Of a stretch of DNA of 64,000 nt, positions 18,253 to 29,156 are shown in pieces. The stretch covers positions 1 through 64,000 of the IMG/VR virus record IMGVR_UViG_3300045988_161192; one strand, written 5' to 3'. The position numbers and the translations under genes were made by a program. Source of the stretch: a virus. Below the pieces are notes generated by a model, which was not told the origin of the DNA, made no database searches, and saw only the letters and a program-made list of their open reading frames with translations. The stretch's first letter is position 1; every line of letters starts with the position of its first letter.

Positions 18253-18426
18253 AATAGCATAAATGAGTAATCATTCTAAACTACCTCGAAGAAGGAGAAA
18301 TGTAATGATAGTAGAAAATCAAAAATCAAGAAAAACAAAATTGAATAGTCGAAAATTAAAGCTAAACCATCTCGAGAGATAGCGAGTAAGTTTAGCTTTT
18401 CTCGACAGTGAAAGGGGCTGGTATAT

Positions 18427-24538: not shown

Positions 24539-24560
24539 AAATTTGAAGGGAGAAAGAAAT

Positions 24561-25976
24561 ATGATAACTTTAATTGTAGCAGGAGTAGTTTTATTACTTC
24601 TAATCATATTTGTAGCATTAAGCTACATCAAATGTCCACCAGATATGGTATACTTAATTTCGGGTCTAAAGAAAGAACCCCGAGTTTTAATTGGAAAAGC
24701 TGGAATAAGAATTCCATTCTTTGAAAGAGTAGACAAATTAACTTTGGAACTAATACAAATTGACGTTAAGACTTCAAAAGTTCCAACTGCTGATTTCATA
24801 AATGTTGATGTCGATGCCGTAGCAAATGTCAGAATTCCAAAAGACAACGAGTTGATACAAGTTGCAGCTAGACACTTTCTAAACCAAGACTCTCGTTATA
24901 TTTCAGTCAATGTACAACAAGTATTAGAAGGAAACATGAGAGAAATTATTGGACAATTGGATTTAAAATCACTTGTGAATGACAAACAAAAATTTAGTCA
25001 GAAAATACAAGAAAATGCTAAAGACGACATCAATGCTATTGGACTTGAAATTGTAAACCTAAATGTACAATCTTGTACTGATGAAAACAATGCAATCAAT
25101 GACTTAGGAATTGACAATTTAGCACAAATCCAAAAATCAGCTAAGATTGCAAAAGCCCAAGCTGAAAAAGAAATCAAGATTGCCGAAGCACAAGCTGATG
25201 AAGAGGGTGCAAAAGCTAGAGCAGATGCCGATGCAAAAATAGCTGAACAACAAAAAGAATTGGAAATTAAGAGAGCTGAGTTCAAGATTGAACAAGACAG
25301 AAAGAAAGCCGAAGCAGACACAGTCTATGAAATCCAAAAAGCTCAACAACAAAAATTAGTAAATGAAAACGAAGTAGCAGCTGAAGTAGCTAAAGCAGAA
25401 AAAACTACTGAACTTAAAGAAAAAGAAGTAGCATTGAAAGAAAGAGAATTGGATGCATTGGTTAGAAAACAAGCTGACGCAGACAGATATAAAATGGTCC
25501 AAGAAGCTGAAGCCCAAAAAGAAGCCAGAATCGCTAGAGCTCAAGCTGAAAAAGAGGCTGCAACACTTGAAGCCGAAGCAATCAAAGCAAAAGCTATCGC
25601 TGAAGCTGATGGAATAAAAGCTAAATTGGAAGCAGAAGCAGATGGTATAAAAGCCAAAGGATTGGCCGAAGCTGCTGGTATTGAAAAGAAAGCAGAAGCT
25701 CAAGCTAAAATGAAACAGGCTTCTATTGTGGAAATGATTTGTAAAGTCTTACCAGATATTGCAAAGGAAGTCTCTACTCCACTTGCAAATGTTGATACTA
25801 TCACAATGTATGGTGACCAATCAACCAAGTTAGTAGAAGAAAATACTCAGAAAATAGACAAAGTCTTGAAGGTGGCCCAAGACAGTTTAGGAATAGACTT
25901 GAAATCATTAGTTGCTGGATTTGCTGCTAAGACATTAGTTGACAAATCAGAAAAACCAAAGAAAGCCGATGAATAG
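24561..25976 (+). CDS. SPFH / band-7 (flotillin-like) membrane protein with long Ala/Glu/Lys coiled coil
   Basis: N-terminal TM helix, SPFH-like core (IDVKTSKVPTADFINVDVDAVANVRI...), then ~200 aa of AEAQA/KAEAE heptads as in FloT/YqiK; ATG at 24561 after GAAGGGAGAAAG. Confidence 0.6.
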   Translation: MITLIVAGVVLLLLIIFVALSYIKCPPDMVYLISGLKKEPRVLIGKAGIRIPFFERVDKLTLELIQIDVKTSKVPTADFINVDVDAVANVRIPKDNELIQVAARHFLNQDSRYISVNVQQVLEGNMREIIGQLDLKSLVNDKQKFSQKIQENAKDDINAIGLEIVNLNVQSCTDENNAINDLGIDNLAQIQKSAKIAKAQAEKEIKIAEAQADEEGAKARADADAKIAEQQKELEIKRAEFKIEQDRKKAEADTVYEIQKAQQQKLVNENEVAAEVAKAEKTTELKEKEVALKERELDALVRKQADADRYKMVQEAEAQKEARIARAQAEKEAATLEAEAIKAKAIAEADGIKAKLEAEADGIKAKGLAEAAGIEKKAEAQAKMKQASIVEMICKVLPDIAKEVSTPLANVDTITMYGDQSTKLVEENTQKIDKVLKVAQDSLGIDLKSLVAGFAAKTLVDKSEKPKKADE

Positions 25977-26184: not shown

Positions 26185-26838
26185 ATGAAGACATATACGG
26201 ACGAAGAATTTTTCAAATGTAGATTGAGAGGAGCAAACAATGTAATCAGAGCTGTATTTGGCACAGACCCTAAGTTTGAAAAAATTCCACCTTCTGTTCT
26301 TAAGAATGCTGCTAATCGAGGAACAGCAGTTCACCAATATATCGAGACTTATTTGAACAATTTTAAAGAAGGAAAGGACGAAACTCCAGAGATAGATTTG
26401 GAGTATGACATTTATGCTTACTATTTTGGAAAATGGAAAGAAGAACGAGCAACTATAATGGAGGTATATGAAACCGAACGCAAGATAATGTCAGAAGAAT
26501 TAGGATGCAAAGGAATTATTGACTGTATAGCTAAAATCAAGACAGACACAGATGATGAAGCCAAGATTTGTATGATAGACTGGAAGACATCAAGTAATTT
26601 GGACCATTTTAGAACCCAATGTCAACTACAAATTTATTATGAAATGATGGACCAAGAATACCCAGAATTAGCAAAACAAATTGACGAGCTAAGAGTACTT
26701 TCATTGACAAAATATGAGTATAGGTGGTTCAAGTTCCCAATAAACAGAGAACTTGGAAAAAGCATTCTATACTTATACAATAACTTTTTCAGAGAAGAAG
26801 CTGAAAAAGAAAAAGAAAAGAAAATTGAACTTGATTAG
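26185..26838 (+). CDS. PD-(D/E)XK family nuclease (YqaJ/Cas4-like exonuclease fold)
   Basis: motifs GIIDCIAKI and MIDWKTS (D...D-x-K), then QCQLQIYY (QxxxY). Confidence 0.5.
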   Translation: MKTYTDEEFFKCRLRGANNVIRAVFGTDPKFEKIPPSVLKNAANRGTAVHQYIETYLNNFKEGKDETPEIDLEYDIYAYYFGKWKEERATIMEVYETERKIMSEELGCKGIIDCIAKIKTDTDDEAKICMIDWKTSSNLDHFRTQCQLQIYYEMMDQEYPELAKQIDELRVLSLTKYEYRWFKFPINRELGKSILYLYNNFFREEAEKEKEKKIELD

Positions 26839-26850
26839 AAAGGAGTTAGC

Positions 26851-27453
26851 ATGTTTACCAAGTATGCAAGAGGAATGGTGTATTGGGCAGACATTCCAAG
26901 ATATGAAAACAACCCCAATGTCCAATCTGGTATGAGACCATGCATAATTGTCTCAAACGATATTGGAAATCAATTTAGTAAAGTTGTAACAGTAGTCCCA
27001 TGTACAACTAATACTGACCGAAACCCAGAACAAGTTACTCACATGATACTTAAATTGGGAAGAGACGAAGACAGTTTAGTTCTTTGTGAAAATATAATGA
27101 CTATAAACAAGGATTTACTTAAAGGATTTATGGGTATGTTAGGTGAAGACTTAATCGATGAACTTAACAAAGCATTGTCAGCTACTTTAGGATTAGTTAA
27201 AGTAGCCGAACCAAAGATAAAAATCATCGAAAAGACGAAAGAAGAGAAATTAGAAGAAAAGAAGAAAATGAACCGAGGTCGTAAAGTCTCTGGTCCAACA
27301 GAAATGCAAAAATTTCTGAATTATGCAAAAACACATACTCGAAAAGAAGTGATGGCAGAATATGGAATACCAAGTGAAATGGCTGTCACTCAAAGAACAA
27401 GTTATTATCGAAAAAAGTTGAAAATAAACGATAAAATGGAGGCTGGTCGCTAA
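26851..27453 (+). CDS. MazF/PemK-family endoribonuclease-domain protein with an 80-aa C-terminal extension
   Basis: matches E. coli MazF across the fold: GMVYWADI (cf. GDLIWVDF), RPCIIVSN (cf. RPAVVLSP), VPCTT identical, CENIMTI (cf. ADQVKSI); extra Lys-rich plus HTH-like C-terminus. Confidence 0.7.
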   Translation: MFTKYARGMVYWADIPRYENNPNVQSGMRPCIIVSNDIGNQFSKVVTVVPCTTNTDRNPEQVTHMILKLGRDEDSLVLCENIMTINKDLLKGFMGMLGEDLIDELNKALSATLGLVKVAEPKIKIIEKTKEEKLEEKKKMNRGRKVSGPTEMQKFLNYAKTHTRKEVMAEYGIPSEMAVTQRTSYYRKKLKINDKMEAGR

Positions 27454-28034
27454 TGAGTAAAATCTATATACATTATGGTTCTAACGAATTCAAACCGGAA
27501 CTCTTCAAACCAGTTAAGAACGAAATGATGTTCACAAAACCTAAAGGTGGTCTTTGGGCATCTCCAATTAACGCTAAAGAGAGTTGGAAAGAATGGTGTG
27601 AAAGAAATGACTTCCACTTAGAACTTTTAGAAAAATCATTTGTCTTTGTTCTAAAACCAGATACCAAAGTATTATTTATTGACGATGTCAAACAATTGGA
27701 GAATTTACCAAAAGTCCAAAACCCAGCGATTTTCGATAATTTCAAGTTATGGACTTGCTTAGATTTTGAAAAGCTATCCCAAGAATACGACGCTGTTGAA
27801 ATCACATTGTCTGAGGAAAAATCACACCGAGGTGAATTCTGGGGCGGTCTATATGACAAACTATATGGATGGGATTGTGATAGTATTTGTATAATGAACC
27901 CAGAATGCATTAACACAAATCCAGAAATTACTATTACTCCTATTATAGAACAAAAACCAGAGGAACCTGGTGATACATATAAGCAATATGTTGTCAAAGG
28001 TTATAAAATCAGCCAAAATGGAGAAGCTCTGTAA
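27453..28034 (+). CDS. hypothetical protein translationally coupled to the MazF-like gene
   Basis: TAATG overlap with the upstream gene; 193 aa. Confidence 0.4.
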   Translation: MSKIYIHYGSNEFKPELFKPVKNEMMFTKPKGGLWASPINAKESWKEWCERNDFHLELLEKSFVFVLKPDTKVLFIDDVKQLENLPKVQNPAIFDNFKLWTCLDFEKLSQEYDAVEITLSEEKSHRGEFWGGLYDKLYGWDCDSICIMNPECINTNPEITITPIIEQKPEEPGDTYKQYVVKGYKISQNGEAL

Positions 28035-28062
28035 AAACCGGAGCTTCAAAATCAATTTTAAG
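28023..28062 (+). terminator. hairpin GAAGCTC/GAGCTTC followed by the conserved AAAATCAATTTTAAG motif
   Basis: 7-bp inverted repeat straddling the stop codon, then the family motif at 28048-28062 and a T-run. Confidence 0.35.
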
Positions 28063-28113
28063 ACAGTTTTAAATATCAAGCCATATAATTACCTTAGCTA
28101 AAATGGAGGTGAA

Positions 28114-28443
28114 ATGATGAACTATTACGAATGCAGGAACTTTGGAATAAAGTATAAAGTTTTTCTTTATATCGATACAAAAGAATATCTGGCAGACAGA
28201 ATATTTTTGGACCATAAGGTCCGTGTGAAATGGACCAGACAATTTTCTCACAAAAACTCACCTTATTTGGTCATATTTTGTAAAGTTCCAAAGAAAGAGG
28301 TCGCAAGATTTAAAATGGCAATGAGTGATTTGGAAAAGAAAATGCTAATCTATGGTTACACAGACTACATGGACCTTAGTAAAAGCATTATAGATGAAAT
28401 TACAGAGGAGGTAGAATTCAGTGGAAGAAAGAAGAGAAATTGA
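28114..28443 (+). CDS. hypothetical protein
   Basis: 109 aa; RBS GGAGGTG. Confidence 0.35.
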   Translation: MMNYYECRNFGIKYKVFLYIDTKEYLADRIFLDHKVRVKWTRQFSHKNSPYLVIFCKVPKKEVARFKMAMSDLEKKMLIYGYTDYMDLSKSIIDEITEEVEFSGRKKRN

Positions 28444-28882
28444 CAAAATTCTGGAAAAGGAATATAATGTACCTGAAGAAATCGAAGAACTCGCTAATGA
28501 TTTAGGTGGAGGTTGGTGGAATTACCGACTAATCGAAAAGGAAAGTCATTGGACCAATAAAGCTGGCAAAGAATATTTCGAAAAATATTTTGAGATACAC
28601 GAAGTTTATTATAAAGGCGATGGAGAAATTTGGGGTTGGTCTGAAAACCCGATGAGTATTTACTTCGAAAACTTCAAAGAAGTAGGTTATCTTGTAAAAC
28701 AAATTAGAGCTGCTACTCGAAAACCTGTTCTGAAACTTGTGGAAGGTGAAGACGGAGAGGAAGAGTTGGTTCCAACGATGAAAACTCTAAAGGAATATAA
28801 AAAAGTTGACCTTTCAAACTGGTGCTCAGAAGATTTTTGGAAAGAAATTGAGGAGACAGAAAATGAAACAAGACGAAAATAA
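28421..28882 (+). CDS. hypothetical protein
   Basis: 153 aa acidic. Confidence 0.35.
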   Translation: MEERREIDKILEKEYNVPEEIEELANDLGGGWWNYRLIEKESHWTNKAGKEYFEKYFEIHEVYYKGDGEIWGWSENPMSIYFENFKEVGYLVKQIRAATRKPVLKLVEGEDGEEELVPTMKTLKEYKKVDLSNWCSEDFWKEIEETENETRRK

Positions 28883-29156
28883 AGTCAAAAAGTCAGTTCA
28901 AGAATATCTCGACTCCTTAGGTGCTTACCATTTTAAAGTACACGGGTCAATTTATATGAGGGCTGGAATTCCAGACATTGTTTGTTGTTACAAAGGAAAA
29001 TTCATTGGAATAGAAACTAAAGATGGAAATAATAAAGCCAGTGAATTGCAATTAGCTCACGGTCGAAAAATAGAACGAAATGATGGCATCTTTATCATAG
29101 CGTACTCTGTCGATGACGTGAAGGAGGTATTTGTAAAATGTGGGTTAGTAGAATGA
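28863..29156 (+). CDS. VRR-NUC domain nuclease
   Basis: GIPDIVCCYKGKFIGIETKDG matches the VRR-NUC (PD-(D/E)XK) core G-x-PD...IE-x-K; ATG at 28863 after AGGAGACAG. Confidence 0.5.
   Translation: MKQDENKVKKSVQEYLDSLGAYHFKVHGSIYMRAGIPDIVCCYKGKFIGIETKDGNNKASELQLAHGRKIERNDGIFIIAYSVDDVKEVFVKCGLVE

Follow-up and report, generated by a model that had tools for sequence, protein, structure and literature searches.

A phage-borne MazF/PemK-family protein with a fused helix-turn-helix module and no recognizable antitoxin gene

In most discussions, MazF figures as a toxin of bacteria that has to be overcome by phages. This raises the question what a phage might do with a copy of its own that, judged by its sequence, appears to be active and comes without an antidote. 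Such a copy is encoded in the IMG/VR virus record IMGVR_UViG_3300045988_161192, of which positions 1 to 64,000 were analyzed (64,000 nucleotides, referred to as the window). The gene at 26851-27453 on the + strand starts with ATG and codes for a protein of 200 amino acids, hereafter MazF-HTH. It is a single polypeptide of two modules, a complete MazF/PemK domain and a small basic helix-turn-helix (HTH) domain, with a flexible basic linker of about 30 residues between them. An earlier sequence-only reading of the locus had proposed three roles, a nuclease for the shut-off of host mRNA, an addiction module of the toxin-antitoxin type, or an abortive-infection countermeasure with a fused or downstream neutralizer. 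The first of these appears to be the most plausible. We tentatively favor, at somewhat less than even confidence, an antitoxin-less MazF endoribonuclease that is used by a virulent phage in infection and that is tethered, targeted or autoregulated by its fused HTH domain.

The MazF/PemK endoribonuclease domain comprises residues 1-117 (26851..27201, + strand), and a Shine-Dalgarno sequence, AAGGAG, can be read 5 nucleotides ahead of the ATG (26840..26845, + strand). Residues 7-111 match the Pfam family PemK_toxin (PF02452) over profile positions 2-107 of 109 with an E-value of 7.3e-19 and 68.4 bits (cut-off 23.1), and the domain matches PHROG 1936 'MazF-like growth inhibitor' with 5.5e-23, confirming that the protein is a phage-borne member of this family. 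In PHROGs, the MazF-like family is assigned to the category 'host takeover'. The domain has the SH3-like barrel of the MazF/Kid/CcdB fold, and a profile derived from 57 family members matches the solved MazF structures of S. aureus and B. subtilis at approximately 1e-22. The VPCTT segment pointed out previously is indeed present, and its P50, C51 and T52 are invariant across the family. Arg29 (codon 26935-26937) and Thr52 (codon 27004-27006) occupy the alignment positions of the catalytic Arg and Thr in E. coli (R29/T52) and B. subtilis (R25/T48) MazF. No variation was seen at either site among 57 family sequences with identities as low as 38%, nor at the RNA-groove positions Q25, H64, E80 and K87. 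This invariance indicates that the nuclease site is under purifying selection, and MazF-HTH is thus probably an intact ribonuclease (RNase). Since the residue at the position of B. subtilis Gln79 differs among the members (N, D or M), the cleavage specificity may differ from that of Bacillus MazF.

The tail of about 85 residues that follows, linker and HTH domain together, is conserved in more than 60 relatives, so that the fused HTH-like tail described before is a real feature of the family, composed of a variable linker and a three-helix domain. The Lys/Glu-rich linker (amino acids 118-147; 27202..27291, + strand) carries a surplus of basic residues (K+R 11 versus D+E 6), varies in length and sequence in the alignments, and ends in a conserved arm, N-x-G-R-[KR]-V-S-G. 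It was modeled with a predicted local distance difference test score (pLDDT) of 50-63. The adjoining module (amino acids 148-190; 27292..27420, + strand) is predicted with pLDDT 80-85 to form three helices (149-161, 164-171 and 176-189) in a homeodomain-like arrangement of the HTH_28 type. No confident packing between the domains was obtained in the monomer model, which had a predicted template modeling score (pTM) of 0.55. Amino acids 191-200 together with the stop codon (27421..27453, + strand) represent a clade-specific end that is absent in more distant relatives and contains the GGAGG of the next gene. The C-terminal domain is basic (K+R 11-12 versus D+E 4-6), as expected of a nucleic-acid binder, and its net positive charge and family membership suggest that it binds DNA.

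Direct Pfam and PDB sequence searches with the C-terminal domain of the window protein yielded nothing significant, and its only Pfam HTH match was to HTH_49 with an E-value of 0.025-0.11, under the cut-off. The affiliation of the domain was resolved by searching 1.84 billion representative proteins with a profile and scanning the matches against Pfam. This search identified 73 protein clusters with the HTH module. In 23 of them, an N-terminal MazF domain precedes a single module (19 clusters), two modules (3) or three (1); another 49 clusters are free of MazF and contain one to seven tandem copies, and a single cluster had no HTH copy on a domain-level recount. Distant members exceed the Pfam thresholds for HTH_28 (59 bits), HTH_23, HTH_Tnp_1 (51 bits) and BrkDBD. 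Based on the tandem arrays and these matches, the tail is best described as a mobile, repeat-forming HTH module of the homeodomain/transposase type, and its variable copy number (1-3 with MazF, 1-7 without) is indicative of a modular binding domain. Four of the proteins found (P0190, P0193, P0194 and P0200) consist of nothing but four to seven tandem modules of about 50 amino acids with the consensus [ST]-x-E-E-K-x-x-h-h-x-D-Y-x-x-x-G-x-x-Y-x-x-x-K-Y-x-I and constitute an uncharacterized family of HTH arrays. The fusion of MazF and HTH was detected in more than 60 proteins, almost exclusively on phage-sized metagenomic contigs of 45-67 kb. Among 185,579 prokaryotic species genomes, full-length relatives were restricted to three contigs of metagenome-assembled genomes (6-52 kb), and the fusion was present in three of 80 IMG/VR loci, the others carrying plain MazF genes.

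In agreement with the sequence-only reading, no recognizable MazE was found: among the window's open reading frames (ORFs) of at least 30 amino acids, phmmer returned noise only (E>0.2) in what is a weak single-sequence test, with the MazE-like N-terminus of the protein P0066 and approximate MazE sequences of E. coli, B. subtilis and S. aureus as queries. The source of the first query is itself unusual, as P0066-P0068, each 202 amino acids long, start with a MazE-like sequence (K-K-G-Y-I-E-M-A-E-I-N-L) that runs straight into a canonical MazF, owing either to a genuine MazE-MazF fusion or to two genes merged by gene calling. Scans with Pfam, PADLOC and NCBIfam detected no antitoxin domain in the neighboring proteins, tandem antitoxin RNA repeats (ToxI-like, type III) were not found beside the MazF-HTH gene, and an Rfam scan for RNA antitoxin families gave only a tRNA. 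Across the loci of the MazF-HTH relatives, no neighboring gene is conserved and the fusion is the sole constant. The gene immediately upstream (26185..26838, + strand) encodes, as had been recognized before, a PD-(D/E)XK nuclease, which is Cas4/RecB-like (Pfam PDDEXK_1 2.6e-6; PHROG 298 'exonuclease' 4.9e-21; weak Cas4 similarity). The order PD-(D/E)XK followed by MazF-HTH recurs in the related loci L001, L003, L010, L011, L092 and L094, in some cases interrupted by an HNH or glycosyltransferase-like gene, and the upstream gene is a different one in the clade with 40% identity (L002, L012). This nuclease gene is a conserved syntenic neighbor and not an antitoxin.

The remainder of the window is informative about the lifestyle of the phage. 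All long ORFs are located on the + strand, and a PHROG scan identified there a major head protein (367), a tape measure protein (4454), a helicase (16817), an ATP-dependent DNA ligase (18669), a DNA polymerase (35680), a primase-helicase (42335), the large terminase (45996), a portal protein (48085), a DHH phosphoesterase (53152) and an endolysin (55906); two tRNAs lie at 52590-52842. Near-identical DNA was not found in GenBank phages, and no integrase was detected among the 26 window ORFs that were scanned against PHROGs. The window thus represents almost the entire genome of a novel siphovirus-like phage with a probably virulent lifestyle, and the MazF-HTH locus is situated within its early DNA-metabolism block. 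An addiction module, as considered in the sequence-only reading, fits poorly with a phage that brings its own replication machinery and shows no integrase in these ORFs.

Our preference for an antitoxin-less nuclease is based on the intact active site, the basic HTH family with its variable copy number and the failure to find an antitoxin, combined with the phage-restricted distribution, the lytic-type gene content, the early-gene position and the PHROGs category 'host takeover'. To our knowledge, dimerization through the core is common to all MazF proteins. The MazF core of the fusion would likewise dimerize and thereby present two nucleic-acid-binding HTH arms, most likely for DNA. In lytic infection, the protein may then act as a sequence-specific endoribonuclease on single-stranded RNA, and no antitoxin would be required because a virulent phage need not protect its host. 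The HTH arms could raise the local concentration of the nuclease or guide it, for instance to transcribed DNA; alternatively, they could supply the DNA-binding and autoregulatory role that MazE has in canonical systems. The outcome would be shut-off of host mRNA or timed transcript decay, in analogy to the T4 RegB nuclease.

Several points weigh against this interpretation. RNase activity, dimerization and DNA binding are all properties that we infer. The window protein itself reaches no Pfam HTH threshold, and its link to HTH_28 is transitive; within the family, HTH_28 was matched weakly by 4 of 25 members, with a best E-value of 0.005. With regard to the virulent lifestyle, the negative result for integrases covers just the 26 scanned ORFs, and the window may lack about 2 kb of the genome. 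Neither ACA nor UACAU nor other published MazF motifs are depleted on the phage coding strand. UACAU, the canonical site of Bacillus and Staphylococcus MazF, was observed 67 times versus 82 expected, so that self-protection by avoidance of this site is not supported. A different pentamer, GTAAG, is missing from the coding sequence (0 observed versus 31 expected from synonymous-codon shuffling) and occurs only once on the whole + strand (intergenic, at 18386) versus about 30 expected, while its reverse complement CTTAC occurs 53 times. As all genes are on the + strand, such an asymmetry could reflect either avoidance of an mRNA endoribonuclease site or a bias in orientation directed against type III restriction. 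The depletion of GTAAG is not common to MazF-HTH phages at 40-60% identity, and avoidance of type III restriction explains it equally well. For these reasons, it was not used as evidence for self-immunity.

Further k-mers deviate from expectation in this genome. A strand asymmetry similar to that of GTAAG was seen for CCAAAT (1 versus 90), TAAATC (0 versus 59) and TCAAAT (5 versus 66). GATC is fully absent from the window (0 versus about 163 expected) and is absent or nearly absent also in L001, L003, L009 and L010. ATTAAT and CATATG do not occur in the window either, and a strong depletion on both strands was seen for GANTC (GAATC 18 observed versus 90 expected, GATTC 7 versus 55), TTAA and CATG. 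The depletion of GATC and these further motifs looks like restriction-site avoidance.

Among the alternatives, the one that survives best, clearly less probable than the use as a nuclease, is that MazF-HTH functions as a transcription factor whose HTH domain binds phage or host promoters, with the MazF fold serving to dimerize or to bind a partner and RNA cleavage being vestigial or secondary. The HTH belongs to a DNA-binding family, and through dimerization of MazF two HTH domains would be displayed, as in a classical repressor. A gene for a protein of 479 amino acids with MazF and three HTH copies (L096, 3001-4440) is located directly behind two sigma-70 region 2 genes; the same gene precedes one for an anaerobic ribonucleotide reductase (NrdD), and a link to transcription is hinted at by this arrangement. 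In some GenBank records, MazF-like proteins of the plain type from Lactobacillus phages bear the name 'PemK family transcriptional regulator', and in CalpT a MazF-like domain is linked with the control of a sigma factor (bioRxiv 10.1101/2024.05.08.593097). However, if the MazF fold were nothing but a scaffold, one would not expect Arg29, Thr52, Q25, H64, E80 and K87 to stay invariant down to 38% identity.

Somewhat less likely still is a fused, cis-inhibited toxin-antitoxin protein in the manner of CapRel(SJ46) or EzeT, in which the linker and the C-terminal domain hold MazF inactive until it is set free by a trigger such as a host factor or another, superinfecting phage, resulting in superinfection exclusion or abortive infection. 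This would agree with the lack of a separate antitoxin and with the fusion itself being the only family-wide conserved feature, and the linker shows a semi-conserved patch, EE-x-L-x-EK, as well as a helix at 130-139 that is weakly predicted. MazE blocks the groove of MazF with an acidic tail. In contrast to such acidic groove inhibitors, the C-terminal domain of MazF-HTH is basic. In addition, the module belongs to a DNA-binding HTH family and is free of MazF in 49 of the 73 clusters, the interdomain packing in the monomer model is not confident (see the pTM and linker pLDDT values above), and the phage is apparently virulent. The fused neutralizer of the sequence-only reading is thereby weakened, given a domain that is basic rather than acidic and that occurs without MazF in two thirds of its clusters.

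Could the neutralizer be encoded by the next gene instead? Both ORFs exist as previously described: the second gene (27453-28034, + strand, 193 amino acids) starts with an ATG that shares one base with the MazF-HTH stop codon in TAATG, and it has its own ribosome-binding site, GGAGG, at 27438-27442 (+ strand), 10 nucleotides upstream of the ATG. The translational coupling stands. The designation as a gene of unknown function requires qualification, because the product is not featureless. The protein matches PHROG 8582 (function unknown) and no Pfam family, and its own family comprises more than 160 members from phage-sized and larger contigs, sharing a core of about 150 amino acids. A confident structural model predicts a weak but consistent resemblance to the ADP-ribosyltransferase (ART) fold; sequence similarity to any solved ART was not found. 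The clade of the window protein has an extra C-terminal beta-hairpin extension of 40 amino acids. Invariant in the family are H7, G9, N23, P30, G32, G33, W35, W45, D104, D113, W140, D141, D143 and S144, of which H7 is part of the strand-1 motif Y-I-H-Y-G, W35 of the strand-2 motif G-G-L-W-A-S, and D141 and D143 of W-D-C-D-S. In the model, H7, W35 and D141/D143 appear to be placed as expected of an H-Y-[EDQ] triad, which suggests a member of the H-Y-[EDQ] clade.

A reverse-order two-gene toxin-antitoxin system, in which the ART-like protein modifies MazF here and a downstream protein of 79-101 amino acids takes this role in relatives, is nevertheless improbable. It could build on the TAATG overlap with the separate GGAGG site, on the presence of some gene starting 0-13 nucleotides behind MazF-HTH in two clades, on the predicted ART-like fold, and on the precedent of T4 Alt, which ADP-ribosylates MazF and lowers its activity (review PMC5408214). 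However, the partner is not conserved. HMM (hidden Markov model) searches of 15 loci showed that the ART-like gene is absent beside MazF-HTH in eight of the nine relative loci examined; it follows MazF-HTH in the window and in its 80% relative L092. In L001, L003/L004, L010, L011 and L094, a gene for a small protein of 79-101 amino acids, unrelated to the ART-like protein, takes this place, and in L002 and L012 neither of the two is present. Conversely, in L009 and L093, siblings with the same order of a flotillin-like and a PD-(D/E)XK gene, the ART-like gene overlaps or abuts the gene for an unrelated protein of 270-278 amino acids, to which it is as tightly coupled as to MazF-HTH, and in L005-L008 it is found amid unrelated small genes beside integrases, without any MazF. 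Short or overlapping gene junctions are moreover common in the region. The searches thus rule out the ART-like gene as a conserved partner of MazF-HTH, and since most relatives lack it and unrelated genes precede it elsewhere, it is unlikely to be a dedicated neutralizer, contrary to what the sequence-only reading had considered. We regard it as a cassette with a second, independently mobile early gene that happens to fill the next slot in this lineage.

The small protein (L001 5591-5875; L003 5595-5846; L010 7858-8160; L011 10578-10817; L094 3326-3589) is always encoded 0-13 nucleotides 3' of MazF-HTH in the clade with 50-60% identity. It is characterized by the motifs N-W-A-C-W-N-F, Y-G-H and G-Y-V-V-x-E-D-E-L-E, and two scanned members had no Pfam match. 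Its absence from the window, L002 and L012 rules it out as a universal partner, and it is a candidate partner within the 50-60% identity clade only. The protein of 270-278 amino acids (L009 3188-4000; L093 2172-3008), which occupies the MazF-HTH slot, carries a CxxC...CxxC zinc ribbon at its N-terminus, and the L009 copy gave no match to Pfam.

Even less credence is given to an elaborate scheme, which would amount to a new class of self-sufficient phage weapon, in which MazF, tethered by the HTH to DNA or the transcription machinery, would cut nascent host transcripts, the ART-like enzyme of this lineage would switch its activity covalently in a type VII-like manner, and the near-complete avoidance of GUAAG on the mRNA strand would provide self-immunity. 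Most doubtful of all is an anti-defense decoy that would sequester parts of a MazEF-type defense of the host or compete with them: phages do interfere with host MazF, as with T4 Alt or with phi3T AimX/YosL (PMC10769878), but nothing in our data is directly in favor of a decoy, sequestration of a host antitoxin would activate rather than block the host toxin, and the conserved catalytic residues argue for enzymatic use.

Other features surrounding the locus were recorded as well. Two genes upstream of MazF-HTH, separated from it by an ORF of 80 amino acids and the PD-(D/E)XK gene, lies a gene for an SPFH/Band 7 flotillin-like protein of 477 amino acids with a long Ala/Lys/Glu-rich coiled region (24543-25976), an unusual cargo for a phage that is kept in the sibling phages L009, L092 and L093 (Pfam Band_7 and Flot matches). 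Downstream, an ORF of 116 amino acids (28806-29156) matches the endonuclease family PHROG 93 (5e-20), a Holliday-junction resolvase PHROG and, weakly, Pfam Hjc; it overlaps the preceding ORF (28421-28882) by 77 nucleotides, and its true start is therefore probably located further downstream. A consensus scan detected a promoter-like site, AAGACA-18-TATAAT, at 28060..28089 (+ strand) in the gap of 80 nucleotides behind the 193-amino-acid gene, where the next transcription unit may start, and a perfect sigma-70 consensus promoter, TTGACA-17-TATAAT (12/12), at 28440-28468, at the overlap of the ORFs 28114-28443 and 28421-28882. The total number of such sites in the region is not above chance, and they serve as leads only.

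Compared with known systems, MazF-HTH shares its PF02452 domain with the type II toxin MazF/EndoA of S. aureus and B. subtilis, from which it differs by the lack of a MazE gene, the location in a probably virulent phage and the additional 85 amino acids of linker and HTH. CapRel(SJ46) and EzeT similarly unite a toxin and an extra domain in one polypeptide without a separate antitoxin. Their extra domain is a dedicated cis-inhibitor, whereas that of MazF-HTH is a generic, basic, repeat-forming HTH module that mostly occurs without MazF. Related in the toxin part are the stand-alone 'MazF-like growth inhibitor' proteins of phages (PHROG 1936/35650), for example Lactobacillus phage Satyr gp065 and Thomasclavelia phage TR-TP1 gp119, which have a PemK domain with 33-40% identity over residues 4-119 and likewise come without an annotated MazE, but are only about 117-120 amino acids long and lack the HTH tail. 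We know of no stand-alone phage MazF-like protein that has been functionally characterized, and in the literature we found neither a functional study of these proteins nor a description of the MazF-HTH fusion. Matches to MazF-HTH were found in 91 GenBank phage records, each covering at most 57% of the query, and MazF-like genes have already been annotated in staphylococcal prophages (PMC6507118).

A MazF-fold domain in a two-domain protein tied to transcription control is also found in CalpT, which combines a domain resembling MazF with DUF2080 and is the anti-sigma factor of the CRISPR effector CalpL-CalpT-CalpS (bioRxiv 10.1101/2024.05.08.593097). In contrast to MazF-HTH, CalpT is a component of bacterial defense, carries something other than an HTH as its second domain, and is controlled through proteolysis. 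A functional connection between a phage ART and MazF is known from T4 Alt, which ADP-ribosylates and dampens E. coli MazF (review PMC5408214), and in the window an ART-like gene is located directly behind the MazF gene. However, Alt belongs to the R-S-E clade and targets the MazF of the host, and the linkage of the 193-amino-acid protein to MazF is not conserved, so that the juxtaposition is suggestive, yet unsupported by conservation.

As MazF-like genes of phages were already annotated, what is new here is an orphan MazF that is restricted to phages and carries a modular HTH tail, located next to a so far unannotated ART-like family of more than 160 proteins that has neither a Pfam family nor a functional annotation. 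Current concepts are not overturned by these findings, and their interest is moderate. A mechanistic analogy, and an analogy only, is T4 RegB, a phage-encoded, sequence-specific endoribonuclease with a toxin-like fold that is produced early in the lytic cycle without an antitoxin. RegB differs from MazF-HTH in having a RelE/YoeB-like instead of a MazF fold and in lacking an HTH. If MazF-HTH is an active nuclease, it would be the MazF-fold counterpart of RegB and would provide a compact, testable case of toxin-antitoxin toxins turned into takeover tools. It would also enlarge the molecular toolbox by a new sequence-specific RNase as well as by a family of HTH modules that form repeats.

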